DNA of 19,476 nt from the UHGV virus genome UHGV-0127163. One strand, 5' to 3'. The stretch comes from a virus. The translations under genes and the position numbers were made by a program. The notes below the pieces were generated by a model. The model saw nothing but the letters and a program-made list of their open reading frames with translations, searched no databases and was not told the DNA's origin. Shown here piece by piece: positions 50-17,087 of this stretch. Numbering within the stretch: the first letter of the stretch is position 1; every line of letters begins with the position of its first letter.

Positions 50-769
50 TTAAATGCCGAGTGGGAAAATATCATGGCCTTGTTCTTGCCAACTGGTGAG
101 TTGCTGCTGTTGGGCGGAGGTTCGATTTTCACCGCACCACACCAGCAATGTACGGCCTTCGAATAGTTCAGGGCGTAGTTGATTGAGCGAGTGGGCGAGG
201 ACATCAATGCGCCATCCTTGTTGACTGGCAATCCAGCCCTCCAGCCACAGACGGGTGGTATCCTGAATATTCCAGCCAACCACCAGCGCATCTTTACCCT
301 GTTTTTTACGTGCCGAAGCCAGACAAATGGCGATGTAGTTGATCAGTACGCCGTCGAGGATCGCCAGCAGCGCCTGGAGAGTCGGTTGTTGGCATTGAAG
401 TCGTCGGCGCAGAGGAATAAACAGATGTGTGGTGAGTGTCTGGGCGGGGTAATCCTGACCGCGCTCTTTGATCCACGTTCGCAGGCTATGCAGATTGCCG
501 CTTTGCAGGTAGGTCAGTAATGTTTCTTGCTGATCGCGCCAGCCGTTCTGCACATCAACATTTTCATTACTGAGCAGCATTTTAACTTTGCTGACCTGCA
601 CGCCGTTGTCGATCCAGCGTTTGATCTCGCGGATACGGTCAATATCGGCATCGTTGAACAGTCGATGACCGCCGTCTGTCCGTTGCGGTTTCAGCAACCC
701 GTAACGCCTCTGCCACGCGCGTAACGTGACAGGGGTTAAGGGTAAACTAATTGATTTTGCAAGTTTTTA
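50..769 (-). CDS. mlrA: MerR-family transcriptional regulator (MlrA/YehV-like); host gene whose native 5' end is replaced by prophage-junction sequence
   Basis: Translation carries a MerR-type HTH C-terminal half (PVTLRAWQRRYGLLKPQRTDGGHRLFNDADIDRIREIKRWIDNGV) followed by a long effector domain; stop TAA at 50-52. Upstream of ~725 the in-frame sequence (KLAKSISLPLT) no longer looks like a MerR helix-1 and the frame closes at TAA 767-769, 2 nt from the integrase stop. ORF-track start at 697 is a TTG. Assignment to mlrA/yehV is from memory of the protein and of yehV as a known lambdoid integration site. Confidence 0.55.
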
Positions 770-2829: not shown

Positions 2830-3774
2830 TCATTGATTCACCTCCTGCCTGTCGTCCGGCATTCGCTCACTACAGCTTATCCAACCATCCGGAGTTACCG
2901 GAACTTGTGGAATGGCTGTCTGCTCTCGAACGTCATTAGGCGCTATAGGTTCTGCTGCCAACTGACTGGCATATTTGTTAATGGTAACGATAAGCTCTTG
3001 CTCAGCCTCATCCAGACAATCACCGATACCTCGCCTGTCACCGTCAAAATCATCGAAATCGGCACGAATCCTGGCAACCTTCAGGATTGCGGACAACACC
3101 TCACTAGGAATTGCCGGATAGTTGGTTGACGTTTCCGCGATTTCCCGAAAATTATTGGTTGACGAATTCTTGTTTTCCCGAAAGTTTCCGGACTGAAGCA
3201 TGGCGGCGCGGCAGGCGTTCCATATTTCGGCAGCAATATCGCGCTCGCTATCGGTTAATTTGTACGTTGAAACATAGCCAGAGAGCATTTCTACGTTTTC
3301 CGGAGTTGCTTCTTCAGGCACTACCGGTGCTGGCTCACGTATTACAGGCTCGCCCATGCGTGATTCTCCCTGCGCCTCTTTCACCATGTGGTCATTGATT
3401 TGCTCCAGTCGCCGAACGTGCTCATCAGCTTCAAGCGCTCGCCGTTTCCAGATGGACAGGTCTTCACGAGCGCCCTGATATGCGTCACCGTATTCGCCGT
3501 TAAATACTGGCGCTGGCGGGGCGATGCGTCCAAGCAACTTATTTACCTCTTTCGCCATCGCGTCATATTTATCTAAATAGCGATTAGCTTCTAAGCAGAC
3601 TCGGTGCATCTGATCTGAGTTAACTCGTTTAACTGGATCTGCTTCCAATGATGCCAGTGCAATCCGTGCCAGTTCTTCCGCTTCTTCTGCTGGCAGTACA
3701 ACGTTGCTACCCGGTCCGTATGTTTCGCGCCACTGCTTGATTGTCAGCAGTCGCCCTTTGGTAATAGTGATCAT
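2830..3774 (-). CDS. Hypothetical phage protein (314 aa)
   Basis: Long ORF, start ATG overlaps stop of upstream gene (ATGA at 3771-3774). Acidic, coiled-coil-like composition; contains an internal ~33 bp tandem duplication (3120-3186). No domain assigned. Confidence 0.6.
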   Translation of the reverse strand: MITITKGRLLTIKQWRETYGPGSNVVLPAEEAEELARIALASLEADPVKRVNSDQMHRVCLEANRYLDKYDAMAKEVNKLLGRIAPPAPVFNGEYGDAYQGAREDLSIWKRRALEADEHVRRLEQINDHMVKEAQGESRMGEPVIREPAPVVPEEATPENVEMLSGYVSTYKLTDSERDIAAEIWNACRAAMLQSGNFRENKNSSTNNFREIAETSTNYPAIPSEVLSAILKVARIRADFDDFDGDRRGIGDCLDEAEQELIVTINKYASQLAAEPIAPNDVREQTAIPQVPVTPDGWISCSERMPDDRQEVNQ

Positions 3775-4286
3775 GCCGCGTTTCCTTCTTTCTTATTAAC
3801 AATCACACCGTCATATATTTCATTAAGGTGCCCTCTCAACTCCATGCGCCTTAATGCAGATAACATGTAATCGCATTCAACCTGCTTATTCCCGGTAAAT
3901 GGCTTATCGTCAGGATTACCCCAACAGCAATTACCCCTGGGCCATCCATGTACTTTCCGTACTCTTCCGTTAACAACGTGAAGTAATCCCCAGCCGGGAG
4001 GTAAATCCTCAACTGAAATAATTTCCGGCTCACTAATAAAGAATCGCCAGTCGCCCATGCCAAGTGAGGGATTTTTACGGAAACGCTTTTTTCTATCTGC
4101 CAACAAGTCAGCACGAGAACACTTCGCCTCTATCAGGCATGATGCTGAATTTCTGAATCCCATAGCATCTGGCTGTTCTCCGGTACTGGTTACAGCAACA
4201 AAGCGGTCATGAAAGCAAACCTTGAACCCGTTGCGCTTAAGGAACTTGTACGCAATCTGACAGAGTTCGTGGTGTGTTAACGCCAT
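3771..4286 (-). CDS. Hypothetical protein with PD-(D/E)xK nuclease-like motif
   Basis: 171 aa; GGAGAG SD before ATG 4286; translation contains …EQPDAMGF…(19 aa)…CLIEAKCSRADL…, resembling a D…(D/E)xK nuclease core. Family assignment not verified. Confidence 0.5.
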   Translation of the reverse strand: MALTHHELCQIAYKFLKRNGFKVCFHDRFVAVTSTGEQPDAMGFRNSASCLIEAKCSRADLLADRKKRFRKNPSLGMGDWRFFISEPEIISVEDLPPGWGLLHVVNGRVRKVHGWPRGNCCWGNPDDKPFTGNKQVECDYMLSALRRMELRGHLNEIYDGVIVNKKEGNAA

Positions 4287-4287
4287 A

Positions 4288-4860
4288 TCACTCTCCTTTG
4301 ATGCGAATGTCAGCGACGCGTAATGCGTGTTCTAGGTCAATCAGGTAAAGCCAACTGCCATTTTCTTTAGGTATCATGACTTGTCGCTCATCTGCATTTA
4401 TCGGGTGTCCATATCGAAGGTCGTAGCGAGTCGGTAATTGAACTTCCCGCGCTTCCAGTTCAGCAATACGCTTGCACCCATCAGAGATAACTCCCTCGTA
4501 ATACTCGCGCTGCTCGTTGAGTTTTGATTTTGCTGCTTCAAGCTCAACGCGCAGCTTCCCAACCGTAAGCGCAATATCCTCGTTCTCCTGGTCACGGCGT
4601 TTGATGTATTGCTGGTTTCTTTCCCGTTCATCCAGCAGCGCCTGCACTACTTCAGGGTTGAAAGCTGCGATATAACGAGCGTTGTTCTCTGCGTTGTTCT
4701 GTCCATCAAAGCCGGTCCATTTGATAACGTCTTCACATCGTTTATCACCAGGTGTATGCACCGCATATGTACCAGTACCAGACGAAATAAATGCGACCCA
4801 TTCACCCTGTGTTGCCAGTTGCGCCGCTTTACGCAGTGCCTGATAGTCAATCTTGCTCAC
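4288..4860 (-). CDS. Ea22-like early protein (ead/Ea22 family), start likely GTG at 4860
   Basis: N-terminal …SKIDYQALRKAAQLATQGEWVA… resembles the conserved N-terminus of lambda-type Ea22-like proteins (recalled, not searched). GTG at 4860-4858 overlaps stop of upstream gene (GTGA) and follows AGGAGG SD; ORF-track ATG at 4896 lacks an SD. Confidence 0.55.
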   Translation of the reverse strand: MSKIDYQALRKAAQLATQGEWVAFISSGTGTYAVHTPGDKRCEDVIKWTGFDGQNNAENNARYIAAFNPEVVQALLDERERNQQYIKRRDQENEDIALTVGKLRVELEAAKSKLNEQREYYEGVISDGCKRIAELEAREVQLPTRYDLRYGHPINADERQVMIPKENGSWLYLIDLEHALRVADIRIKGE

Positions 4861-5096
4861 TGGTTGCCTCCTTTGCGGATCTGCGCTGCGATGCACGAAA
4901 AAAAAGACTCCCGCGTATGACTGTTAAGAGCTGGCGCGAACGCTGCGTTAAGAACGGCAGCATCACAGCCGTCATCGATATAGAGCGCAATTTTTTTCTC
5001 CAGGCGCGCTTTGGCTTCCTGCAACTGCATACCCCGGCACGCACGCGGGATATAATCAGCAATTTGAGCGATAGCTTTTTCGTTCTGTTTAAACAT
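4857..5096 (-). CDS. Hypothetical small phage protein (79 aa)
   Basis: ATG 5096 with GAGGTG SD; stop overlaps next gene start; same operon orientation. Confidence 0.5.
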   Translation of the reverse strand: MFKQNEKAIAQIADYIPRACRGMQLQEAKARLEKKIALYIDDGCDAAVLNAAFAPALNSHTRESFFSCIAAQIRKGGNQ

Positions 5097-5292
5097 GCTT
5101 CACCTCGATAGGCTTGATGGTGTCTAACAGCAGTCGGCGGCGCGTATTTTCTGCAAAGTGGCGGCGTCCAGTTTCTTTGTGGTAAAACTCGTTTTTGCCG
5201 ACGACCCACATCCGTTCTGTTTGGTGCAATTTTTTTACCTGCGGTCCATCTTTGGTGATCACGGTACCGGTATGGGTTTTTACGATTGTCAT
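5089..5292 (-). CDS. Hypothetical small phage protein (67 aa)
   Basis: ATG 5292 with AGAGGT SD, ATGA overlap with stop of PAPS-reductase-like gene. Confidence 0.5.
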   Translation of the reverse strand: MTIVKTHTGTVITKDGPQVKKLHQTERMWVVGKNEFYHKETGRRHFAENTRRRLLLDTIKPIEVKHV

Positions 5293-6167
5293 GCCACTAC
5301 CTCTTCGAATTTCAACTCCAATTGGTCACCCCAGATTTCACATGATTCGGAACACGAACCAGTATCAAACCGCTTGGCCAGCACCATCGCCTGATACAAA
5401 CTTCTGTAGTCGCTGTCGGCATACATTCTGGCAATCCTGTCAAGCGTCAGGTGACCACGGTACATAACGTCTTTACCTGTTCTGCGATGACCATCCCGGA
5501 CGTGTTTGCCTGTAACCAGTTCATTAAAAACCCGCATCAGACCAGGTTCGTCTTTACATGCGATCCCCAGCTTTTGCGTTGACTTTTTGATGCAGAAAAC
5601 ACAGTTCCCGAGGTGCTCCGGGATTTGCAAATCAAAAGGTTGTTTACGCCACCACCGGATAACATCCGACTTATCAAAATCTGACAGCTCGGCAAGATAC
5701 CGGACGCCCGGTTTCGGTTTCAGCCTACGGTGTTCGTCCGCACGAATACCCAGCCATGTGATGTAATTCCCTCGCCCAAAATGGTCATCGCAATATTTCG
5801 TGAAAGGGGTGAGTTTTAGCCTGTCAGTACAGAATGCGCCGCCGATGTATGGCGTACCGTACTTTTTAACCATGTCCATAAACGGTTTAAGCACCGGCAT
5901 TCGCGTCTGAATATCCTTTGGTTCCCATTCCGTATAACCATTTGGCTGCCCAAGCTCTGGATTTATATCGACCTGCAACACAGTTAGCGGTATGCCCCAG
6001 AACTTCACAACCTCCCGAATAAAGCGGTATGTCAGCGGATGTTCGCAACCGGTATCCATAAAGATGTAGCAGACGTTATTGCCAGCCTTTCTTTGTTCTT
6101 CCATCAGGTGAACAAGATATGCAGATGTTCTCCCGCCAGAAAAACTAACTACATGAGTTATGCACAT
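5289..6167 (-). CDS. Phosphoadenosine-phosphosulfate (PAPS) reductase-family protein (PP-loop ATP pyrophosphatase fold)
   Basis: 292 aa; N-terminal PP-loop-like motif VVSFSGGRTSAYL (SGGxxS-type), typical of the PAPS reductase/ATP-sulfurylase-like superfamily found in lambdoid early regions. Confidence 0.7.
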   Translation of the reverse strand: MCITHVVSFSGGRTSAYLVHLMEEQRKAGNNVCYIFMDTGCEHPLTYRFIREVVKFWGIPLTVLQVDINPELGQPNGYTEWEPKDIQTRMPVLKPFMDMVKKYGTPYIGGAFCTDRLKLTPFTKYCDDHFGRGNYITWLGIRADEHRRLKPKPGVRYLAELSDFDKSDVIRWWRKQPFDLQIPEHLGNCVFCIKKSTQKLGIACKDEPGLMRVFNELVTGKHVRDGHRRTGKDVMYRGHLTLDRIARMYADSDYRSLYQAMVLAKRFDTGSCSESCEIWGDQLELKFEEVVA

Positions 6168-6694
6168 TTGCGTAATTCCGATAACTCGTTGAAGCGTTCC
6201 ATAAACATCCCGTAGGCATGGCCCGGTGCCAGTGGAATCACTTTGAACATCTCTGTTGCCGGGATACCTTCCAATACAGGCCAGAAAGAGCCATCATCAA
6301 GTCCGAGATCGCGGCGTTCGGTTGCCAGCATGATGAGATCGGCATATTTCACAGGCGTGCTCATAACCGGGGGTAACCCGTATTTCTCACGGATTACGGC
6401 GTCTATTTTTTCTTCCATCCGTTTATAGTCAGGAAGAAGGCGTTTCAGTGGAGCGGGAATATCCTGGCAATACGCTTCTGTTGCATCATGCATTAACGCT
6501 TCAAAAGCAAATTCCTGCGGCACCAGCTGGCTGCAAAGCACCGCATGTTGGGCGACACTGTAGAAGTGAGAAAGATGACCGGCAAAGCGGCAGATATTTG
6601 AAAGGGAAACCGCGATATCGTTAATCACGATGTCGTCTTTATTTATCTTGTCATAATAAAAATGCTTCCCGGAAAAAGTTTTAATAAATGACAT
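6158..6694 (-). CDS. HD-domain phosphohydrolase (YfbR-like nucleotidase family)
   Basis: Translation contains H…H and HD motifs (…FAGHLSHFYSVAQHAV…, …ALMHDATEAYCQDIP…). Preferred start ATG 6694 with GGAGAA SD; the longer ORF-track start at 6763 lies inside a strong hairpin. Confidence 0.7.
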   Translation of the reverse strand: MSFIKTFSGKHFYYDKINKDDIVINDIAVSLSNICRFAGHLSHFYSVAQHAVLCSQLVPQEFAFEALMHDATEAYCQDIPAPLKRLLPDYKRMEEKIDAVIREKYGLPPVMSTPVKYADLIMLATERRDLGLDDGSFWPVLEGIPATEMFKVIPLAPGHAYGMFMERFNELSELRKCA

Positions 6695-6736
6695 TTTGTT
6701 CTCCACGTTATATGCGCTGCACCGCTCTGAATTTTG

Positions 6737-6786
6737 ATTGCAGCAATCCAGCCCATTTGACATGGGATGATTGCTGCAATTTTTTT
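6737..6786 (+). terminator. Perfect 12-bp inverted repeat with nested 5-bp hairpin, followed on the + strand by T6 (intrinsic-terminator-like on + strand)
   Basis: ATTGCAGCAATC (6737-6748) / GATTGCTGCAAT (6769-6780); inner CCCAT-ttgac-ATGGG (6752-6766); TTTTTT 6781-6786. Sits between the RdgC-like and HD genes. Confidence 0.35.
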
Positions 6787-7702
6787 AAGTTGTTGGATTT
6801 TGGCTTTTATCTTCTTTGTAAGAAAGAAGGTCACACATCAAATTAACTACCTTGCTGAATTGGAAAAGGTCAGCGCCAGTCTGATGACGCCACTGGAATG
6901 CTTTATCATCTTCATCATTAAATGTCTGAGATTGAGTATTGATGCGCGAAAAATGGAAATTTTCGGTAAGAATGAAGGTCACACCGCAACCGGATAACTC
7001 CATTTTATCAGCAGTGAAACTACTACTAAGGCTATCGGCCAGTTCGCTTTGAATTGACTCATGCTCAGCTGAGTAGCGAATAATTTCCTTTTGATCTGCG
7101 TAGCGTGATAGCTGAATATAATTTCCGACAGTGAATCCTTCAAATGCATTGGCTGCACCATTGATGTAGTTATTCAGGCGTGTAGTCAGTCCATTCTTGA
7201 TATCACTGATGTTGATTGTTTCTGTTTTCACTGAACCGACAACCTTAATCAGCATTGCGCATACCATACCGGCTATTATTTTATTGGTTGTGTTGATTAC
7301 CAATAATTTCTCATCAGTGCTGTACAATGCAAGAATCAGAGTAGACTTAACAAATGCCTGTTTGCATAGATCTACTCGTACGTTATCAATAATGGCCAGT
7401 CGTTCGGCACGCTTTAATTTATTCCCGGACATATTTTCGATTGTTTGGATTCGAGAATTAGCTTCTTTCATGACGACATGTCGGGGAATTATTTTCTGAT
7501 CATGACGGATTACCATTGCGTACCCACCAGATATCGGAGTTACCAGTTCACCAGTGACAGGATTCTCTACAAAAGAGGACCGTGAAAATTCTGTTTCCCC
7601 GATTTCAGAATAAGGGAGTTCGAGAAGATGACCTTCAATAGCCTGTATACTAGGTAATGTTGCTCGGTACACAATTGCGTTACGAAATTTTGGTAATTTC
7701 AT
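6785..7702 (-). CDS. rdgC: RdgC-like recombination-associated protein
   Basis: From ATG 7702 (GAGGA SD) the product starts MKLPKFRNAIVYR…, matching the RdgC N-terminal pattern (M-x-x-F-K-N-x-x-VYR) and its ~305 aa length. The ORF-track N-terminal extension to 7903 overlaps the structured leader and is unlikely to be translated. Confidence 0.7.
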   Translation of the reverse strand: MKLPKFRNAIVYRATLPSIQAIEGHLLELPYSEIGETEFSRSSFVENPVTGELVTPISGGYAMVIRHDQKIIPRHVVMKEANSRIQTIENMSGNKLKRAERLAIIDNVRVDLCKQAFVKSTLILALYSTDEKLLVINTTNKIIAGMVCAMLIKVVGSVKTETINISDIKNGLTTRLNNYINGAANAFEGFTVGNYIQLSRYADQKEIIRYSAEHESIQSELADSLSSSFTADKMELSGCGVTFILTENFHFSRINTQSQTFNDEDDKAFQWRHQTGADLFQFSKVVNLMCDLLSYKEDKSQNPTT

Positions 7703-7740
7703 TCTATTTTCCTCTGCACAATGTATTAGTTTCTCCACAA

Positions 7741-7835
7741 AACAGAGAAGAACACCTGCGGTGGCAGCCGCCCGGATGGATTGGGTTATGAGCCCGTCGT
7801 CCGGTGATGCTCTTCTCTGTTTTGTAAAAAGAGCG
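7741..7835 (-). promoter_or_regulatory. Structured RNA element in early-left leader: boxA-like CGCTCTTTTTA followed by a 14-bp stem enclosing a ~53-nt multi-hairpin core
   Basis: On the - strand: CGCTCTTTTTA (7835-7825), then AACAGAGAAGAGCA (7821-7808) pairing with UGUUCUUCUCUGUU (7754-7741); 13 Watson-Crick pairs plus one G-U on the - strand (the same position is an A-C mismatch on the + strand). Immediately 5' of the RdgC SD. Confidence 0.4.
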
Positions 7836-8288
7836 GTACCAGCCGGAAGCAAGTGTACAAACTGGTACCGCCAAAGCAGTGGCTGTTGTGGTGGGGTTGT
7901 CACTCAGGCGTATGGTCAACCTGACAATCCGGTGTCCTCAACGGGGAAAGAGTAACCCCGCCATACTTACCGCCGCGCCATTTCGCGGATTACCACAACG
8001 CTGAGAGCACTTAGCCAGTTACGGCACCACACTTTGTCGCGGCTCCATAAATGCCCTCATCGTTGCACCCTGGTCTCTTCCCAAGCGTCAAACCGAATCG
8101 CCACGCTGGTTAGGCGTCTTATCAGCATCATCATTGACTTGCACATTCCGGCTACCTGGTTTGTTTGCCCGAGCAAGGAGTGGATTGTCCCCTTTAACGT
8201 CCCCAGACCGCTAACGACGCATGTGCCATACGCCGTGTTACAACCAACCTTTCGTTAACAACAGTCTGTTGTTTGTTCAGATAATGAT

Positions 8289-8303
8289 GCTACTAAAAGT
8301 AGC
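8289..8303. promoter_or_regulatory. Candidate OL operator: palindrome GCTACT-aaa-AGTAGC related to the OR repeats
   Basis: 15-bp site with 6-bp arms; shares CTA…AAGTAG with the 13-bp repeats at 10664-10676 and 10687-10699; a further AAAAGTAG half-site at 8318-8325. Embedded in AT-rich DNA with plausible leftward -35/-10 hexamers. Confidence 0.35.
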
Positions 8304-8600: not shown

Positions 8601-9686
8601 TTACAGACACTTGACTACTGTTGAAACATCAGATTCTAGTGCTTCAATTTGTGCTCTATTAGCTTGGGTCGCCATACCATAGATAGTGTAACTCTTATGC
8701 TGCAGCCTACTTAAAGGGCATCCCTCATGGTTTATTATTGCTGCAAGAGTATTACCATCTTTGACATTTTGAACTCTCTCGAAAGTAGCCACATTTGTGA
8801 ACAGATGAGGATGTGTATTTAACAGGTCATCCGTGATTCTTTTGATCTCTTCTGCATGTGATTTGAATGCTTTTGCTGCATCACTTTCATTAGTTCTTGA
8901 GCGGTTTTGTACGAAAAGGTGTAGTTCAGGTAGTTCGATAAGGTTTTGCTTTGCTTCTTTGTTGAAATCTAAGAACATTTCATCTTGTTCTGACTTGTCA
9001 ATAGACACTCCATAAATAAGTTTAACAAGGTTTTTTATTCCGCGAATTGATGCAGCATCGGCAGTGCAAGGGATAATTATTCTATTTGCCGCGACTACTC
9101 CCAATTCTGTGTAGCTGGCAAAACTTGGATTACAATCAATAAAAAATGTTTTTGCTCTGTCAGAAATGTTTTTATCGGCTTCAAAAGATGCTATTAGATC
9201 TACCAGCAAAGATCGGCTTTTCTTCCATGCTTCTTTTACTGGGGATGAGCCAATGTGAGATATTAAGCGTGAACAGATATCAAGATCGACATCACCAGGA
9301 AGAATATATAAGTTCTCTGGCATTTTTGCATTAACATCATGGGCTCGTACAAAGTAAGAAGATTCATTTCCTAAACGAGACAAAGGAGATTTGCTAAAAC
9401 GCTCCTTGATATAACCTGCGATTGTAACATTTCTGTCTCGCAATTTATTTAGATTTTCTTCCCCGGTACCATTGCCACCAAGAATAATTTCTGAAACGTT
9501 TGATTGAGGGCATGAGTCAATAACCACAACATCTTGATCCGGATGAGATATAGCAAACTCAACGGCAAGATTATATGTAAGAAAAGTTTTTCCTACACCA
9601 CCTTTGTTGTTCCATACTAAATATTTTGTATTGGTGGAAATCATATCTGCTACCCCATCTGTCGCTTCAGTACGTTCATTAATCAT
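8601..9686 (-). CDS. ParA/MinD-superfamily P-loop ATPase with ~100 aa C-terminal extension; orphan gene in the cI-to-OL interval
   Basis: Deviant Walker A NNKGGVGKT, Walker A'-like VVVIDSCPQ, Walker B-like FFIDCNPSF in translation. AGGA SD 7 nt before ATG 9686. Visibly AT-richer than flanking phage DNA; preceded by a 234 bp AT-rich spacer and followed by its own terminator. Confidence 0.75.
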   Translation of the reverse strand: MINERTEATDGVADMISTNTKYLVWNNKGGVGKTFLTYNLAVEFAISHPDQDVVVIDSCPQSNVSEIILGGNGTGEENLNKLRDRNVTIAGYIKERFSKSPLSRLGNESSYFVRAHDVNAKMPENLYILPGDVDLDICSRLISHIGSSPVKEAWKKSRSLLVDLIASFEADKNISDRAKTFFIDCNPSFASYTELGVVAANRIIIPCTADAASIRGIKNLVKLIYGVSIDKSEQDEMFLDFNKEAKQNLIELPELHLFVQNRSRTNESDAAKAFKSHAEEIKRITDDLLNTHPHLFTNVATFERVQNVKDGNTLAAIINHEGCPLSRLQHKSYTIYGMATQANRAQIEALESDVSTVVKCL

Positions 9687-9920: not shown

Positions 9921-10661
9921 TTAAAGTCGATTATATTTAATCGACTCATGAATCAGTGCCTTACCCATAACATAAAGCTGATCTTGCGACTTCTCATCAA
10001 TGTACCATTTCTCATAGGCGGGGTTATCCGAAAGAACAGCTAGTTTGTTGCCTTGCATTTGTAGACGTTTAACATGGAAAGTCTTACCGTAAACGAAAGA
10101 GTAAACTCCATCAGTCTGGAAGTGGCGAACGGAAATGTCGACAAACAATCGATCCCCGGAAACAAGAGTTGGGGACATACTATCTCCATTTACCGTCATA
10201 ACTTTTATATCATTCTGAGAACGGTTTCCGAAAAGAGAACGGGCATGTTCAGTTGTGAACTCAATGGCGTAGAGCACATCAACATAGTCTGAAAGCATAT
10301 AGGTCCCAGGTCCTGCGCTAACGCTAAGATCCAAAACTTCTATCCTGTATACATCGGGCTTTGTTGGATTGGGGATGCTTGCCATTTCCTTACATTCCTC
10401 TCTATCTCCAACACCATATTCTAGATATGAAGCTGATACTCCAAGAGCCAACGCAAGTTTACTCATGACAGAGACACGTGGCTTCGCTGCGCCGATTGTG
10501 TATCGACGAGCCATTTCATATGTAACGCCCACAAGACTTTTGAGTTGAGTGACAGAGATTCCTTTGATTGTCATCAATTCGTTTAGTCTCTTGGCGAAAT
10601 CTGGATACTTCTGTTCTTCTACCATAGGTAGAAGATTACTCACATCGCACGCGCTAGTCAT
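9921..10661 (-). CDS. cI: CI-like prophage repressor (XRE-type HTH + LexA/S24 peptidase autocleavage domain)
   Basis: HTH segment …ISVTQLKSLVGVTYEMARRY…; C-terminal S24 signature …VNGDSMSPTL… and downstream Lys (…FHVKRLQ…). Divergent from the cro-like gene. ATG 10661 has no SD and abuts operator repeats, consistent with a leaderless pRM-type transcript; ORF-track start at 10682 is TTG. Confidence 0.8.
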   Translation of the reverse strand: MTSACDVSNLLPMVEEQKYPDFAKRLNELMTIKGISVTQLKSLVGVTYEMARRYTIGAAKPRVSVMSKLALALGVSASYLEYGVGDREECKEMASIPNPTKPDVYRIEVLDLSVSAGPGTYMLSDYVDVLYAIEFTTEHARSLFGNRSQNDIKVMTVNGDSMSPTLVSGDRLFVDISVRHFQTDGVYSFVYGKTFHVKRLQMQGNKLAVLSDNPAYEKWYIDEKSQDQLYVMGKALIHESIKYNRL

Positions 10662-10663
10662 TT

Positions 10664-10723
10664 CTATTTTAAGTAGTTGCAATTTGCTATTTTAAGTAGC
10701 ATCATCCCTCTGAATTTCAGAGG
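10664..10723. promoter_or_regulatory. OR-like operator/promoter region: two 13-bp direct repeats plus a 17-bp palindrome overlapping the cro SD
   Basis: CTATTTTAAGTAG at 10664-10676 and 10687-10699 (23 bp centre to centre); CCTCTGAA-t-TTCAGAGG at 10707-10723; cro SD AGGAGAAAGG at 10721-10730. Confidence 0.45.
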
Positions 10724-10731
10724 AGAAAGGT

Positions 10732-10971
10732 ATGTCATCTCAAAACTACACAGAGAAAGCAGTAAAGGCTGCGGGAAAATCTTTATCTGAAGTAGCCCGT
10801 CGCTTTGGTTTTAAGTCCACTCAATCCGTCGCCAATTGGGTAATTAACAATCAAGTCCCGTCAGAACGGGTTTTACAACTTTGTGAGTTGGGAAACTGGT
10901 CCGTGACCCCTCATGAACTGCGTCCTGATATTTACCCCAATCCAAATGATGGATTACCTGAGTGCTATTAA
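10732..10971 (+). CDS. cro: Cro-like HTH regulator (DicC/YdaS family)
   Basis: 79 aa, strong SD, divergent from cI; …GKSLSEVARRFGFKSTQSVANWV…VP..R…LRPDIY pattern resembles DicC/YdaS-type Cro proteins. Confidence 0.7.
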   Translation: MSSQNYTEKAVKAAGKSLSEVARRFGFKSTQSVANWVINNQVPSERVLQLCELGNWSVTPHELRPDIYPNPNDGLPECY

Positions 10972-11608
10972 AAAGTTAGCGGTTCAACTGCGTAAACGTA
11001 ACCACAGAAACGAGGAATTAACCGTGGGTAAAGAACCTGAATGGAAAGTTGATAAGCAACCAGCATGGCTGGTGGCAGCAATACGAAGAACGATTGCTGA
11101 TTTACCTCATGGCTATGAGGAAGCAGCGGAAATTCTTGGTTTGTATAAATCTGATGATATCACCCCAGCGAAAGATCAATTGCATAACAGACTGCGTAGC
11201 GGTGGGGATCAAATTTTTCCACTTGAGTGGGCCATGGTTTTACAGGATGCCAGTGGTACCAGGCATGTAACGGATGCGATAGCGCGTCGTAGTAATGGGG
11301 GGTTTGTGCCGCTGGTGGACATTGATGACATTGACAATGGTGACATTAATCAGCGGCTGATGGAGTCAATAGAATGGATTGGCAAGCATTCCCAGTACTT
11401 ACGCAAGGCAACTGCTGATGGAGTTATTGACCAGGCTGAGCGTGAGCAAATCGAAGAGAACAGCTACCAAGTAATGGCGAAGTGGCAGGAGCATTTAACA
11501 CTGTTATTTCGTGTTTTTTGTGCGCCGGAAAAGAGTAACGCCCGCGAGTGTGCAGCTCCGGGCGTCGTGGCGTCGATTGCTTCTGGTTGTGGAGAAACTA
11601 ACGCATGA
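10946..11608 (+). CDS. Hypothetical early-right protein in the cII position (possibly YdaT-like); start uncertain
   Basis: ORF overlapping the 3' end of cro in another frame; candidate starts ATG 10946 (no SD) or GTG 11024 (GAGGA SD). Family not securely recognised. Confidence 0.45.
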   Translation: MMDYLSAIKKLAVQLRKRNHRNEELTVGKEPEWKVDKQPAWLVAAIRRTIADLPHGYEEAAEILGLYKSDDITPAKDQLHNRLRSGGDQIFPLEWAMVLQDASGTRHVTDAIARRSNGGFVPLVDIDDIDNGDINQRLMESIEWIGKHSQYLRKATADGVIDQAEREQIEENSYQVMAKWQEHLTLLFRVFCAPEKSNARECAAPGVVASIASGCGETNA

Positions 11609-11933
11609 ATAGTTTAACGGCAAATAACCGTTTGTCGCAACAGCTGGTGGTCAGCGTCGCTGAACACCTGTTGTTACGGCATGAATGCAGATTACCAAAT
11701 CACCTGGCTGTAAGTAACCACAGAGAACTTTACCTGACTGTGGGGGGCGAGTTGTGCAGGAACTTAACCGCTGGTTTCGTGACGGAAGAGGGCTTTATGT
11801 CCATGTTATTCGTTGGGAGCCAGAAACACAGCGCGTTATCTATCTTCGCAAAGACTACCCGCATGAGTGCTTTAGTCCTTTGTGGAAATTCAGGCGTGAT
11901 TTTGTTGAGTGTGAAGGACCACCAGCATATTGA
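11605..11933 (+). pseudogene. Small gene split between frame 1 (11605-~11748) and frame 3 (~11748-11933) at a G6 run: frameshift mutation, homopolymer sequencing error, or -1 frameshift site
   Basis: ATG 11605 is coupled to the upstream stop (ATGA). After the G6 run (11742-11747) only frame 3 reads as protein-like (RVVQELNRWFRDGRGLYVHVIRWEPETQRVIYLRKDYPHECFSPLWKFRRDFVECEGPPAY, stop 11931-11933); frame 1 turns Ser/Ala/Gly-rich and low-complexity. Frame 3 is closed upstream by TAA 11715-11717. Confidence 0.35.
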
Positions 11934-12021
11934 TTCTGCAATTCCGGGACGTTACACTGCTCAGGCACCTTATAAAGCGGGTGCCGGGGGTCGCAGCCCG
12001 GAATTGTCAACGGCGATATAT

Positions 12022-12041
12022 GACGCGCCAGCGTCTTTTTT
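12022..12041 (+). terminator. Candidate weak intrinsic terminator (tR1-like) upstream of rha
   Basis: GACGC-gcca-GCGTC followed by TTTTTT (12036-12041); lies inside the computed 382-aa ORF, ~90 nt after the frame-3 stop. Confidence 0.4.
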
Positions 12042-12207
12042 ATCGTCCGCGCTCACGCACGCCAGAATTATGGTGGGCTGGGCAGGGGAGCCGAAAGGCT
12101 CGCCGGTCTCCGTTGACGCCGGTACTGCGAACCCTGTTCAGTCTGCCACCAGTGAGTTTCGCAGCTCCGGTGGTGGAAGTTTTCCACAGTCAACGGAGGC
12201 TGCCATC

Positions 12208-12753
12208 ATGGCTACGATCCCAACCCTCACTCAACCTGAAATTGCCATCGTTGATGGTCAGGCTGTTACTTCATCCCTGGCTGTTGCCAACTTCTTCTCC
12301 AAACGTCATGACGATGTACTGAAAAAGATCCGCACGCTTGAATGCTCTGCATCATTCACTTCCCGCAATTTTTCGGTGAGTGATTACACCGATTGCACAG
12401 GCCGCAAACTACCTTGCTATCAAATAACCCGCGACGGCTTTGCGTTTCTTGCTATGGGTTTCACGGGTAAACGTGCTGCCCAGTTCAAAGAGGCATACAT
12501 CAATGCCTTTAACCAGATGGAGAAACAGCTTTCAAATCCCTCTGTACTGAGCGACGTTGCACATAACGCCAGCGTTCTCTATTCCTACATTTCATCAATT
12601 CATCAGGTCTGGCTGCAGCAGCTTTATCCCATGTTGGCAAAAGCCGAATCCCCGCTGGCTGTAAGTCTGTATGACCGCATCAACGACGCGGCGCTACTGG
12701 CCAGTCTCATAAATTTGTCGCTGAACCCTTCAGAGGTAAGGGGGCGCAAATGA
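12208..12753 (+). CDS. rha: Rha-family phage regulatory protein
   Basis: From ATG 12208 (GGAGG SD at 12195-12199) the product begins MATIPTLTQPEIAIVDGQAVTSSLAVANFFSKRHDDVLKKIRTL…, matching the N-terminal Rha domain (…KRHDxVLrxI…). The 382-aa ORF-track version is judged an artefactual upstream extension. Confidence 0.65.
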   Translation: MATIPTLTQPEIAIVDGQAVTSSLAVANFFSKRHDDVLKKIRTLECSASFTSRNFSVSDYTDCTGRKLPCYQITRDGFAFLAMGFTGKRAAQFKEAYINAFNQMEKQLSNPSVLSDVAHNASVLYSYISSIHQVWLQQLYPMLAKAESPLAVSLYDRINDAALLASLINLSLNPSEVRGRK

Positions 12754-14252: not shown

Positions 14253-14741
14253 ATGAGTCTGATGAACGATGTACAGAAATTCATTGAAGCCCATCCGGGG
14301 TGTACTTCAGGTGACATTGCGGATGCTTTTGCTGGTTACTCACGACAGTGCGTTCTGCAGTCAGCAAGCAAGTTACGTCAGAGTGGCCGTGTGGCTCACT
14401 GTTGTGAAGGGAAAACACGCAGACATTTCCCACACCAGGCTGAGATATCGCAGGAGGAGAAACTGCAACCTGTTCTTGAAACCATACCTGTGCGCAATTT
14501 CTATGTCGGCACTAACGATCCCCGGGTGATTTTGTGCCTGACCCGCCAGGCGGAAGAACTGGAGTCCAGGGGCTTATACCGTCGTGCTGCAACCGTGTGG
14601 ATGGCGGCATTCCGTGAAAGCCACTCCCAGCCAGAACGAAACAATTTTCTGGCGCGTCGTGAGCGGTGCTTACGGAAAAGCAGAAAGCGCGCTGTAGCGG
14701 GTGATGAGTGGTATCTGTCAGGGAATTACGTGGGGGCTTAA
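14253..14741 (+). CDS. Hypothetical regulator; C-terminal motif resembles PerC/Pch-family activators (uncertain)
   Basis: GGGGG SD before ATG 14253 (GTG 14247 also possible). Motif …AEELESRGLYRRAATVWMAA… resembles the PerC-family signature as recalled; the N-terminal ~60 aa may be a winged helix. Not verified. Confidence 0.4.
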   Translation: MSLMNDVQKFIEAHPGCTSGDIADAFAGYSRQCVLQSASKLRQSGRVAHCCEGKTRRHFPHQAEISQEEKLQPVLETIPVRNFYVGTNDPRVILCLTRQAEELESRGLYRRAATVWMAAFRESHSQPERNNFLARRERCLRKSRKRAVAGDEWYLSGNYVGA

Positions 14742-15394
14742 TGAGTAATAAATATTGCCAGGCGCTGGTGGAACTACGGAACAAACCAGCCCATGAACTG
14801 AAGGAAGTGGGCGATCAGTGGCGCACGCCGGACAACATTTTCTGGGGAATTAACACCCTGTTTGGCCCGTTTGTTCTGGATCTGTTTACTGACGGTGATA
14901 ACGCCAAATGTGCCGCGTATTACACGGCGGAAGACAACGCGCTGGCACATGACTGGTCAGAACGTCTTGCGGAGCTTAAAGGTGCTGCCTTTGGTAATCC
15001 CCCGTACAGCCGCGCCAGTCAGCATGAGGGACAATACATCACCGGCATGCGTTACATCATGAAGCATGCCAGTGCCATGCGTGATAAAGGCGGGCGCTAT
15101 GTTTTCCTGATCAAAGCGGCCACCAGCGAAGTGTGGTGGCCGGAAGATGCAGATCATATTGCTTTTATTCGCGGGCGTATTGGTTTTGAACTGCCAGCCT
15201 GGTTTATCCCGAAAGACGAAAAGCAGGTGCCAACAGGTGCTTTCTTCGCTGGTGCTATTGCTGTTTTCGACAAGACCTGGAAGGGAGCGGCAATCAGCTA
15301 CATCGGGCGCGATGAACTTGAGGCATGTGGTGAGGCCTTTCTGGCGCAGGTTCGCCAGCAGGCGGAAAAACTGGTCAGGGAGATGGCGGCATGA
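14741..15394 (+). CDS. Phage DNA N6-adenine methyltransferase (Dam-like)
   Basis: Motifs DQWRTP near the N-terminus and NPPY (…FGNPPYSR…); ATG 14741 overlaps upstream stop (TAATG). Confidence 0.7.
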   Translation: MSNKYCQALVELRNKPAHELKEVGDQWRTPDNIFWGINTLFGPFVLDLFTDGDNAKCAAYYTAEDNALAHDWSERLAELKGAAFGNPPYSRASQHEGQYITGMRYIMKHASAMRDKGGRYVFLIKAATSEVWWPEDADHIAFIRGRIGFELPAWFIPKDEKQVPTGAFFAGAIAVFDKTWKGAAISYIGRDELEACGEAFLAQVRQQAEKLVREMAA

Positions 15395-15717
15395 CGACAT
15401 TAACTCAATGCCAGCAGCAGGTGCTGGATATGCTGATTTCTTATCAGAAAGAACGTGGCTTCCCGCCAACCAATCAGGAGGTGGCAACCATGCTGGGATA
15501 CCGTTCGGTGAATGCAGCGGTGGAGCATCTTCGAGCACTGGAGAAAAAAGGTGTCATCACGATAAAGCGTGGCGTGGCCCGGGGTATCACTCTTCATACC
15601 GCGGTGAAGGACGACGACAGCGAGGCGGTCGGGATTATCCGCGCCCTGCTTGCCGGTGAGGCAAACGCCAGGCTGCGTGCAGCCCACTGGTTACATGAGA
15701 GGGGCCTGAAAGTATGA
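15391..15717 (+). CDS. LexA N-terminal DNA-binding-domain paralog lacking the S24 peptidase domain
   Basis: MTTLTQCQQQVLDMLISYQKERGFPPTNQEVATMLGYRSVNAAVEHLRALEKKGVITI… closely parallels the E. coli LexA N-terminus ([58 protein letters not shown]…, recalled). Only 108 aa; the C-terminal ~40 aa has no Ser/Lys protease motifs. Confidence 0.75.
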   Translation: MTTLTQCQQQVLDMLISYQKERGFPPTNQEVATMLGYRSVNAAVEHLRALEKKGVITIKRGVARGITLHTAVKDDDSEAVGIIRALLAGEANARLRAAHWLHERGLKV

Positions 15718-16109
15718 AGCTAATACTGCCTTTTCCGCCCAGCGTGAACACGTACTGGCGACACCCTAACAAAGGGGCGTTTGCTGGTAAGAGCCTGATA
15801 AGCGCGGCGGGGCGAAAATTCCAGAGCGCGGCGTGTGCAGCAATAGTTGAGCAGTTACGTCGTCTGCCGAAACCAACGTCGGCACCTGCTTCAGTGGAGA
15901 TCGTGTTGTTTCCTCCGGATAACCGGATCCGCGATCTGGACAACTATAACAAGGCGCTGTTTGACGCCCTGACCCACGCGGGTGTGTGGGAAGACGACAG
16001 CCAGGTGAAAAGAATGCTGGTGGAGTGGGGACCGGTTATCCCGGAAGGGAAGGTCGAGATCACTATCAGTAAGTACGAAAAAGCGAGTTGCAAATTAGCA
16101 ACTCGGTAA
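15714..16109 (+). CDS. rusA: RusA-family Holliday junction resolvase
   Basis: …LPFPPSVNTYWRH… and …RDLDNYNKALFDALTHAGVWEDDSQV… match RusA conserved blocks; ATGA coupling to upstream gene. Confidence 0.8.
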   Translation: MKLILPFPPSVNTYWRHPNKGAFAGKSLISAAGRKFQSAACAAIVEQLRRLPKPTSAPASVEIVLFPPDNRIRDLDNYNKALFDALTHAGVWEDDSQVKRMLVEWGPVIPEGKVEITISKYEKASCKLATR

Positions 16110-16174: not shown

Positions 16175-16271
16175 TATCCTTGATAACTATTAAAAATCGC
16201 AGTAAGTTCATCCTGCATCAACGAAAAGGGAGTGCAGTCCCGCTCGTGGATAAAAATTTGTGGAGAAACCA

Positions 16272-17087
16272 ATGAATCAGTTGCTTGTAATTGATGGCGT
16301 TTCTGTGCGCCAGTACTTCGAATCTAACTACTGTCTTAACGACCTTCAGAAAGCTGCTCTTCTTGCCGCTGGTGAGAATCGCTCCTCCCGTTCGCTGGAA
16401 GTTCACGAGTTTATGCGTCGTCCTGAAACGAAGGCTCTTGTGGAATTATTGGAAGAAGAAACTACGGGAGATTCCCGTAGTATTCCTGTCATCACCATTC
16501 AGGGGCGCAATGGTGGGACGTATGTCTGTAAAGAGCTGGTCTATGCATATGCAATGTGGATCAGCCCGGCATTCAGCTTAAAAGTGATACGTACTTTTGA
16601 TGCGCTTCATAATTCATCACCAGAAGAAACCACATCCGACAAAATTAAATCCGGGGTCATTCTGCTTGAATCAGCAGCAAAGACTCTAAATCTGTCAAAC
16701 TCCTCGAAACTTGGTGCATACCAGAAATTATCAAAGGTAGCTGGTCTTCCTGAACTTATGCCGATCTATGCCATTGATGCACCTGCTGATGCGCCAGATG
16801 GTTCAAGCCGCCCTACGCTGTCGCTGAGTGCACTGCTGAAGCAGTATGGTATCCGCCTGACGGCTAATCAGGCATATCACCAGATGGTGAAACTGGGGAT
16901 CGTCGAGCAGCGCGAACGATACAGCCGTACCGCGATTAACAACATCAAAAAATTCTGGTCGCTGACAGCGAAAGGCTGCATGTTCGGCAAGAACATCACC
17001 AGTCCTGCAAATCCGCGCGAGACGCAGCCGCATTTCTTCGAATCCCGATTCCCTGAGCTGTTAAAGCTGCTCGATACCGTTCACTGA
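16272..17087 (+). CDS. KilA-N domain protein, putative antirepressor
   Basis: N-terminal KilA-N/APSES-like block (…VRQYFESNYCLNDLQKAA…GTYVCKELVYAYAMWISPAF…); GGAGAA SD before ATG 16272; LexA box upstream. Confidence 0.6.
   Translation: MNQLLVIDGVSVRQYFESNYCLNDLQKAALLAAGENRSSRSLEVHEFMRRPETKALVELLEEETTGDSRSIPVITIQGRNGGTYVCKELVYAYAMWISPAFSLKVIRTFDALHNSSPEETTSDKIKSGVILLESAAKTLNLSNSSKLGAYQKLSKVAGLPELMPIYAIDAPADAPDGSSRPTLSLSALLKQYGIRLTANQAYHQMVKLGIVEQRERYSRTAINNIKKFWSLTAKGCMFGKNITSPANPRETQPHFFESRFPELLKLLDTVH

Follow-up and report, generated by a model that had tools for sequence, protein, structure and literature searches.

The virus genome UHGV-0127163, analysed here as a window of 19,476 nucleotides (the whole stretch of DNA under study), carries on its minus strand three consecutive genes encoding a PP-loop protein of the 3′-phosphoadenosine 5′-phosphosulfate (PAPS) reductase type, an HD-domain protein, and an RdgC homologue. 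Such an arrangement raises the question of whether the three genes form one functional module or are separate genes brought together by recombination. The original prediction, which was made from the sequence alone, took their pairing to suggest a shared function in nucleotide or DNA modification or in anti-defence. In the current analysis, every part could be assigned to a known family, and the gene order proved to be a rare recombination product of cassettes that are themselves known. We conclude that the three genes are quite probably a mosaic run of independently exchangeable accessory genes in an early-left (PL) operon, rather than the components of one pathway.

As had been predicted, the three neighbouring open reading frames (ORFs) were found intact on the minus strand between 5289 and 7702. 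The rdgC-like gene (6785..7702, 305 aa) is the first ORF of the early-left operon and an exchangeable cassette; it is followed by yfdR (6158..6694, 178 aa), which encodes the HD-domain protein, and by a ninC-like gene (5289..6167, 292 aa), which encodes a PP-loop ATP-pyrophosphatase-fold protein of the lambda NinC family. The spacing had been described as tight or overlapping throughout; this is true of yfdR and ninC, which overlap by 10 nt (ATGTGCATAA), but not of rdgC and yfdR, which are separated by a 90-nt gap without overlap. The ninC gene in turn overlaps the next small gene by 4 nt (ATGA).

The three genes are exchanged independently

The junctions between the three genes were compared with those in related prophages and phages. 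In E. coli SCU-172, at the same mlrA site, rdgC and yfdR are followed by a 120-aa yfdS-type gene in place of NinC. The IMG/VR contigs L006, L007, L013, and L025 have the order yfdP-yfdQ-yfdR-ninC, with yfdP-yfdQ in the place of rdgC; these contigs are 99-100% identical to the window over yfdR, ninC, and the downstream genes, and their similarity stops at 6733 and resumes at 7726. Moreover, Stx2 phage PA2 has NinC without yfdR or rdgC, its neighbours being unrelated genes and a RecT/exonuclease module, and in lambda NinC lies between ninB and ninD with no HD gene alongside.

When 5,426 complete E. coli genomes were examined, the yfdR-ninC junction was present in 283 and the rdgC-yfdR junction in 20; rdgC, yfdR, and ninC together occurred in none, and at no place in these genomes was 80% of the three-gene stretch covered. 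Among 80 IMG/VR loci with NinC of at least 93% identity, which represent one close lineage, yfdR was directly upstream in 63 and RdgC in none. Taken singly, the cassettes were 93-100% conserved across hundreds of genomes and also among viral contigs. A more diverged sample was provided by 80 species-level NinC loci, 49 of which had flanking sequence (NinC 31-74% identical). In none of these 49 was a YfdR or RdgC gene adjacent to NinC; one YfdR-like and one RdgC-like gene were found, each at a distance of over 7 kb, and none of the flanking gene families recurred in more than 10 of the 49 loci. Functional coupling of NinC with YfdR or RdgC was thus rejected outside one E. coli lineage, on the basis of the 80 viral contigs, the 80 species-level loci, and the 5,426 E. 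coli genomes.

The overlap of yfdR and ninC was also examined. The start ATG of the downstream gene sits within the last yfdR codons, both in the window (...AAATGTGCATAA) and in K-12 (...AAATGCGCATGA), and homology to lambda ninC begins only at codon 5 of the window gene. Because this ATG in the 3′ end of yfdR serves either a ninC or a yfdS cassette, the overlap is not specific to NinC, and the tight spacing is a general property of the operon and does not speak for a shared function. Given that RdgC swaps with yfdP-yfdQ, that NinC swaps with yfdS, and that none of the 49 diverged loci keeps the arrangement, the claim that the pairing of the three genes marks a shared function was not borne out.

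The RdgC homologue and the early-left operon

Placement of the three genes in an early-left operon, as originally predicted, was supported by operator-like sites. The 13-mer CTAYTTTWAGTAG occurs three times in the window compared with 0.07 copies expected. Of these, two are situated between cI and cro (10664-10676 and 10687-10699); a third member of the same 13-mer family, CTACTTTTAGTAG (8290..8302, minus strand), marks the early-left promoter region as an operator-like site (OL). Because the site at 8290-8302 precedes a leader that runs into rdgC, and because its twin copies lie between cI and cro, the sequence supports the assignment of rdgC, yfdR, and ninC to a repressor-controlled PL operon.

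The leader itself (7703..8275, minus strand) spans ∼570 nt from the putative PL to rdgC and contains no conserved ORF. It is predicted to be highly structured, the RNA folding z-score being -5.0 over its full length and -6.5 within 7703-7900. A terminator-like GC-rich hairpin (7872-7832) precedes a U tract (7830-7826), and there is also a long hairpin of ∼25 bp (7830-7733). The leader is 97-99% conserved ahead of differing first genes, and segments of it recur in P1/P7 (upstream of ban, just after tRNA-Ile), phiV10, SfV, and ST64B. Scanning the leader region for Rfam families and tRNAs produced no matches. The leader may serve in antitermination or processing.

The first gene of the operon encodes an RdgC homolog, as the original prediction had stated, and it is of the phage type. 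The protein matched Pfam RdgC with an E value of 1.1e-30 (107.5 bits, cutoff 25) over profile positions 3-278 of 298, PHROG 724 with an E value of 8.7e-77, and E. coli RdgC (PDB 2owl) with an E value of 2.3e-9 over residues 6-259. Its score against NCBIfam RdgC (90.1 bits, cutoff 227) was far under the cutoff, and the protein was therefore placed in a diverged phage RdgC clade (PHROG 724) rather than with the chromosomal orthologue.

An alternative to a role in modulating recombination is that the RdgC homologue is a RexA-like protein of exclusion or induction control, and that it is the defence element of the trio. The RdgC fold closely resembles that of lambda RexA, and phage rdgC genes often lie just left of cI (PMC12315714); in SCU-172, too, the first gene to the left of the repressor gene is rdgC. 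In the window, however, rdgC and cI are separated by a ParA-like gene, a strong terminator (8565-8546), the operator-like site, and the 570-nt leader; no RexB-like partner is present, and the RdgC homologue has no match in PADLOC. Given these intervening elements, rdgC more probably belongs to the lytic PL genes than to the cI transcript, and we regard a RexA-like role as unlikely, albeit deserving of serious consideration.

YfdR is almost identical to a DnaA-binding HD protein of K-12

The second gene had been predicted to encode an HD hydrolase, and this family assignment was upheld: the protein is YfdR, and not an orthologue of YfbR. The HD ORF spans 6158-6763, and its true start is the ATG at 6694, which yields a protein of 178 aa. 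This start was chosen because a GGAG lies 7 nt upstream of it, because the protein then matches K-12 YfdR from end to end, and because similarity to related prophages begins only at 6733. The protein is 99% identical to E. coli K-12 YfdR (176/178), including the H...HD...D residues, and it matched PHROG 318 with an E value of 5e-112. YfdR carries the name 5'-deoxynucleotidase in RefSeq. The possibility that it is a YfbR orthologue was rejected (19.6 bits against NCBIfam PRK03826, cutoff 122; 24.0 bits against Pfam YfbR-like, cutoff 25.9).

Previous work provides YfdR with a function of its own (PMC4776307). The protein is homologous in structure to the nucleotidase YfbR, has a much lower affinity for nucleotides, and binds DnaA via Phe46 of domain I; together with its CPS-53 neighbours, it damps initiation at oriC, in that extra copies of yfdQRT or yfdQRS are inhibitory. 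Deletion of yfdQRST from K-12 led to no phenotype (PMC4776307).

NinC is a PP-loop protein of the lambda NinC family

When aligned with lambda NinC, the PP-loop protein showed 78% identity over 290 aa without a gap (292 versus 290 aa), and it matched PHROG 424, the lambda NinC family, with an E value of 7.6e-93; NinC is also the name used for the PP-loop gene in annotations of Stx2 phages. Loci L085-L095, which are ∼48.4 kb contigs or fragments, often of low coverage, in unrelated assemblies (Pseudomonas, Oceanobacillus, Bradyrhizobium, Kitasatospora, Segatella, and others), each contain a NinC that is 78% identical to the window protein, as lambda NinC is; these loci are probably phage lambda DNA contaminating those assemblies.

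The sequence VSFSGGRTS occupies residues 6-14 of the window protein. In alignments of 30 and 36 family members (50-79% identity), the invariant residues of NinC comprised S8-x-S-G-G-R-x-S15, D38-T-G-x-E42, K118, and R142-x-D-E145, together with six cysteines, namely C113, C126, C189-x-x-C192, and C272-x3-C276; the motifs GNCxFCxKK and CxxxC were likewise invariant. An AlphaFold2 model of NinC (pLDDT 88) showed a PP-loop core fold, and the C-terminal ∼120 residues are specific to the family. From these features we infer that NinC is an ATP-using PP-loop enzyme; the cysteines would be compatible with a metal or Fe-S site. A PDB sequence match named 'PptA' (21fy_C) was weak (E value of 0.61) and was discounted, the literature having yielded nothing relevant.

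The view in the original prediction that the PP-loop gene does not serve sulfur assimilation was borne out by profile and motif comparisons. The match to Pfam PAPS_reduct (E value of 4.7e-9) covered only the N-terminal ∼70 residues, and the score against the NCBIfam CysH model (PRK02090) was 20.3 bits, compared with a cutoff of 154. Where the adenosine 5′-phosphosulfate (APS) reductase has a shortened loop, SFSGAE----DVVL, the aligned NinC segment SFSGGRTSAYLVHL keeps the full SGGRTS PP-loop. The motif ECG[LI]H is the defining C-terminal catalytic motif of CysH PAPS/APS reductases; it is absent from the NinC translation, in which the invariant C-terminal motif is GSCSESCE. Judged by these scores and motifs, NinC is clearly not a CysH-type reductase.

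NinC was also compared with the PP-loop proteins of phosphorothioation and related defence systems. The best match in the PADLOC defence library was to SspD (E value of 1.8e-15, 55.4 bits, profile positions 2-121 of 277), followed by BrxP (E value of 1.2e-4) and DndC (E value of 7.7e-4, 16.5 bits, profile positions 26-160 of 468). No full-length match to DndC or SspD was obtained for NinC, and neither dnd genes nor ssp neighbours were found in the window. With QueC of the 7-deazaguanine pathway, NinC had no sequence match and no close fold match. Of the DndC-, CysH-, and QueC-like classes that the original prediction had offered for classification by hidden Markov models, NinC fits neither CysH nor QueC, and its match to DndC is partial in length; SspD gave the best defence match, and the protein belongs to the NinC family.

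NinC is homologous to an anti-Dnd factor and is linked to adenine methyltransferases

The closest connection to an experimentally studied function came from Vibrio phage 44E38.1, whose gene p0018 (P0117) is recorded as 'Dam methyltransferase with PAPS reductase domain'. When the PAPS module of p0018 was compared with the window protein, 55% identity was found over 283 aa (E value of 3e-107); lambda NinC is 59% identical to p0018. According to Piel et al. (preprint 10.1101/2021.05.05.442762), transfer of p0018 with its neighbour p0019 into a sensitive sister phage allowed that phage to infect a Dnd-protected host. PMC13551039 refers to this work as anti-Dnd and also mentions PAPS reductases within Aca-regulated anti-defence operons; phage NinC is not a subject of PMC10853773. 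The upstream gene of the Vibrio cassette, p0019, encodes a DUF6475 protein; it was rejected as an HD partner, since it is not similar to YfdR and the window encodes no homologue of it.

Fusion of NinC to a methyltransferase was found to be recurrent. Six NinC-methyltransferase fusions were scanned; in these the methyltransferase may precede or follow NinC, and two methyltransferase families are represented (PF05869 and PF02086). At 14 of the 49 diverged NinC loci, a gene for an adenine methyltransferase is located downstream on the same strand, 58 bp to 2.4 kb away, and in Salmonella phage Oslo NinC likewise adjoins a methyltransferase. In its early-right operon, the window too has a gene for a phage Dam-family DNA N6-adenine methyltransferase (14708..15394, plus strand; PF05869, E value of 6.4e-45). 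Over 209 aa, this protein shares 71-72% identity with the Dam domains of the NinC-Dam fusions P0124 and P0118, the NinC halves of which are 49-54% identical to the window NinC. Given these repeated fusions and adjacencies, and the 71-72% match of the window Dam, it is the methyltransferase, and not the adjacent HD gene, that is supported as the partner of NinC, and the window Dam is a candidate partner in trans.

The anti-defence function that had been proposed for all three genes therefore found support for NinC alone, through its homology to p0018 and its methyltransferase links, and not for the three-gene set. It is possible, in our estimation somewhat short of an even prospect, that enterobacterial NinC acts against phosphorothioate-dependent restriction. 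We further put forward, tentatively, that the NinC family may be a counter-defence enzyme against Dnd/Ssp-type restriction that acts jointly with a DNA adenine methyltransferase as a two-part system, split here between the early-left and early-right operons and fused in one polypeptide in other phages, and that it may place a sulfur-containing or other ATP-dependent mark on DNA at or near the methyltransferase sites.

Proposed roles of the three genes and alternatives

On the interpretation of the three genes as separate cassettes, loss of the repressor would permit transcription from ∼8300 through the structured leader into rdgC, yfdR, ninC, and the small downstream genes. The RdgC homologue would bind DNA and restrain RecA, or would act in a RexA-like manner. 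By binding DnaA domain I, YfdR would interfere with initiation of host replication early after induction; its nucleotidase activity (as a deoxynucleoside monophosphate phosphatase) would be weak. NinC would use ATP via its PP-loop, together with its cysteines, either for marking phage DNA or for disturbing the phosphorothioate machinery of the host, such that Dnd/Ssp-type restriction would be evaded; it would probably do so jointly with a DNA adenine methyltransferase, either the prophage Dam or the host Dam.

Several observations weigh against parts of this interpretation. Lambda ninC is non-essential and dispensable in the laboratory, and lambda NinC, which the literature describes only as non-essential and counts among the poorly understood lambda proteins, has no known activity. 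The transfer by Piel et al. involved two genes (p0018 and p0019) that displaced two methylase genes, and the effect was credited to the PAPS domain 'at least in part' (10.1101/2021.05.05.442762). Lambda has NinC without a phage Dam, and phage cdtI has Dam and yfdS without NinC; a partnership with the methyltransferase is therefore not obligate. The in vivo effect of YfdR on initiation required YfdQ plus YfdS or YfdT (PMC4776307), all three of which are absent here. Also, yfdR and ninC are frequently adjacent in E. coli (the 283 genomes and 63 of 80 viral contigs described above) and are translationally coupled, and on genomics alone a lineage-specific functional link between the two is therefore possible.

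The three genes could, alternatively, be inert cargo of a decaying prophage that has no current function. The dispensability of ninC in lambda, the lack of a phenotype upon deletion of yfdQRST in K-12, and the presence of pseudogenes in the same region of related prophages would be in accord with this. However, all three ORFs are intact and keep every family-invariant residue, the cassettes are highly conserved in the hundreds of genomes and in the viral contigs, and the flanking regulatory elements are also intact, which renders this explanation improbable.

It is very improbable, moreover, that the PP-loop enzyme and the HD hydrolase, possibly with RdgC, constitute one modification or anti-defence pathway as originally proposed, one example being a pathway in which the HD enzyme acted on a nucleotide that the PP-loop reaction takes up as a precursor or releases as a by-product. 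The 10-nt overlap and the frequent adjacency of yfdR and ninC are what such a pathway would have in its favour. Nonetheless, all cases of adjacency involve NinC of at least 93% identity and may go back to one recombinant junction; yfdS, which is unrelated, is joined to yfdR by the same overlap; no HD gene adjoins NinC in the 49 diverged loci, in lambda, in Stx2 phages, or in the Vibrio phage (where the upstream gene is DUF6475); YfdR has a documented partner of its own, DnaA; and RdgC is missing from all 80 close loci. Finally, it is scarcely credible that the PP-loop gene is an auxiliary metabolic gene for a CysH-type PAPS/APS reductase that boosts host sulfate assimilation, for which there speak the Pfam PAPS_reduct match, the nearest solved structures (which include APS/PAPS reductases at 19-24% identity), and some recent literature assigning prophage PAPS reductases to sulfur metabolism, but against which there stand the CysH model score, the confinement of the Pfam match to the N-terminus, the full PP-loop, the missing ECG[LI]H motif, the recurrent DNA methyltransferase fusions, and the homology of NinC to the anti-Dnd factor.

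The preferred explanation, that of separate cassettes with NinC as a putative counter-defence enzyme, bears on how such genes are annotated. Phage 'PAPS reductases' are still often taken as sulfur-metabolism genes; the one in the window groups with lambda NinC and with the only experimentally implicated relative, the anti-Dnd factor. Moreover, the methyltransferase fusions and adjacencies, combined with the match of the window Dam, point to a testable function for a classic lambda gene that has been without one for decades.

The prophage and other features of the window

At the window's left end, mlrA (50-697, minus strand), which encodes MlrA, is followed by an integrase gene (772-2058) and an excisionase gene (2092-2346). 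Farther to the right, a cI-like repressor gene (9921-10682, minus strand) faces a cro-like gene (10732-10971, plus strand). When the first 2.9 kb of the window was compared with the mlrA-prophage junction of E. coli SCU-172, 98.6% identity was found. On the strength of the mlrA-integrase-excisionase layout, the facing cI and cro genes, and the SCU-172 match, the window is judged from its sequence to be the left half of a lambdoid prophage that is integrated at the mlrA/yehV site of E. coli or of an organism very closely related to it.

The prophage is rich in Chi sites (GCTGGTGG): 14 are present in the 19.5-kb window compared with 0.56 expected, and none of 200 shuffles reached 14. Thirteen of the 14 lie within the prophage, 11 of these on the plus strand. 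Pfam and PHROG searches of the early-left ORFs found no member of the Rec-module families (exonuclease, annealase, single-stranded DNA-binding protein, or RecBCD inhibitor) in the window, which holds part of the prophage and in which several ORFs have no assigned function. Zheng et al. 2025 (PMC12315714) described LLS-type 'no Rec module, high Chi' lambdoid phages, and also reported that yfdP-yfdQ-'yfbR'-type clusters are common in early-left operons, with a role in recombination being unlikely, that RdgC homologues are found in lambdoid early-left regions, and that very distant ParA relatives are found near cI. As far as its sequence can tell, the prophage fits this already published type, which lacks a Rec module and is rich in Chi.

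Two small overlapping genes follow ninC or yfdS (4857..5292, minus strand); they encode proteins of 67 aa (5089-5292) and 79 aa (4857-5096) that belong to PHROG 1226 and PHROG 1344, both families of unknown function. The same pair lies downstream of yfdS in SCU-172 and downstream of NinC in phage PA2. Also on the minus strand, a 171-aa protein (3771-4286) belongs to PHROG 9263, likewise a family of unknown function. Between cI and the early-left promoter, a low-GC island (0.36-0.40) contains the gene for a ParA/AAA_31-like ATPase of 361 aa (8601-9686, minus strand), which has its own strong terminator at 8565-8546. This gene occupies the position used by lambda for rexAB, and it is a candidate for a lysogen-expressed moron or exclusion gene. 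Searches of PADLOC gave nothing meaningful for YfdR, RdgC, the ParA-like protein, or two neighbouring ORFs.

On the plus strand, an ORF of the Ash/Rha family (11605-12753) contains Rfam matches to the isrK Hfq-binding RNA (11965-12041, 58.7 bits) and to the C4 antisense RNA (12066-12153, 78.8 bits), which suggest that the early-right operon carries an antisense immunity element of the P1/P7 type. A 108-aa protein (15391-15717, plus strand) has only the DNA-binding domain of LexA (PF01726, E value of 2.9e-19) and might act as a competitor at SOS boxes; its neighbours are RusA (15714-16109) and a protein of the KilA-N type (16260-17087).

Comparison with known systems

As a whole, the prophage resembles the 'no Rec module, high Chi' phages in its Chi enrichment, in that its early-left ORFs gave no Rec-module match, in its yfdR-type early-left gene, and in its RdgC and ParA-like genes near cI. 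It differs in that only 19.5 kb of the prophage is visible and in that its rdgC-yfdR-ninC order occurs in none of the 5,426 complete E. coli genomes. The RdgC homologue is like E. coli RdgC in its nearly full-length Pfam match and in its sequence match to 2owl, but it belongs to the diverged phage clade PHROG 724. YfdR shares 176 of 178 residues with the K-12 protein of cryptic prophage CPS-53, as well as the same overlapping junction with the downstream gene, whereas the K-12 neighbours YfdP, YfdQ, YfdS, and YfdT are replaced in the window by RdgC upstream and NinC downstream.

With DndC, SspD, and BrxP, NinC shares the PP-loop ATP-pyrophosphatase fold and profile matches. These matches are, however, limited to its N-terminal half; NinC is far shorter than DndC or BrxP, and no dndBDE, sspABC, or brx genes neighbour ninC in the window. 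The likeness to lambda NinC (Nin290) is much closer, with 78% full-length identity, nearly equal size, and all family-invariant residues present in the window protein. The lambda gene lies between ninB and ninD in the early-right nin region, whereas the window gene is early-left, downstream of yfdR, and takes its first four codons (MCIT) from the yfdR junction.

The anti-Dnd effect of p0018 with p0019 was reported for a Vibrio phage; for enterobacterial NinC, such an effect is a prediction. In p0018, a Dam domain is fused to the C-terminus; the window protein ends after the NinC module, and the window Dam, which is only 28% identical to the p0018 Dam domain, is a separate protein encoded 8.5 kb away. 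Nevertheless, the whole NinC module of p0018, including the PP-loop and the six invariant cysteines, is matched by the NinC of the window.

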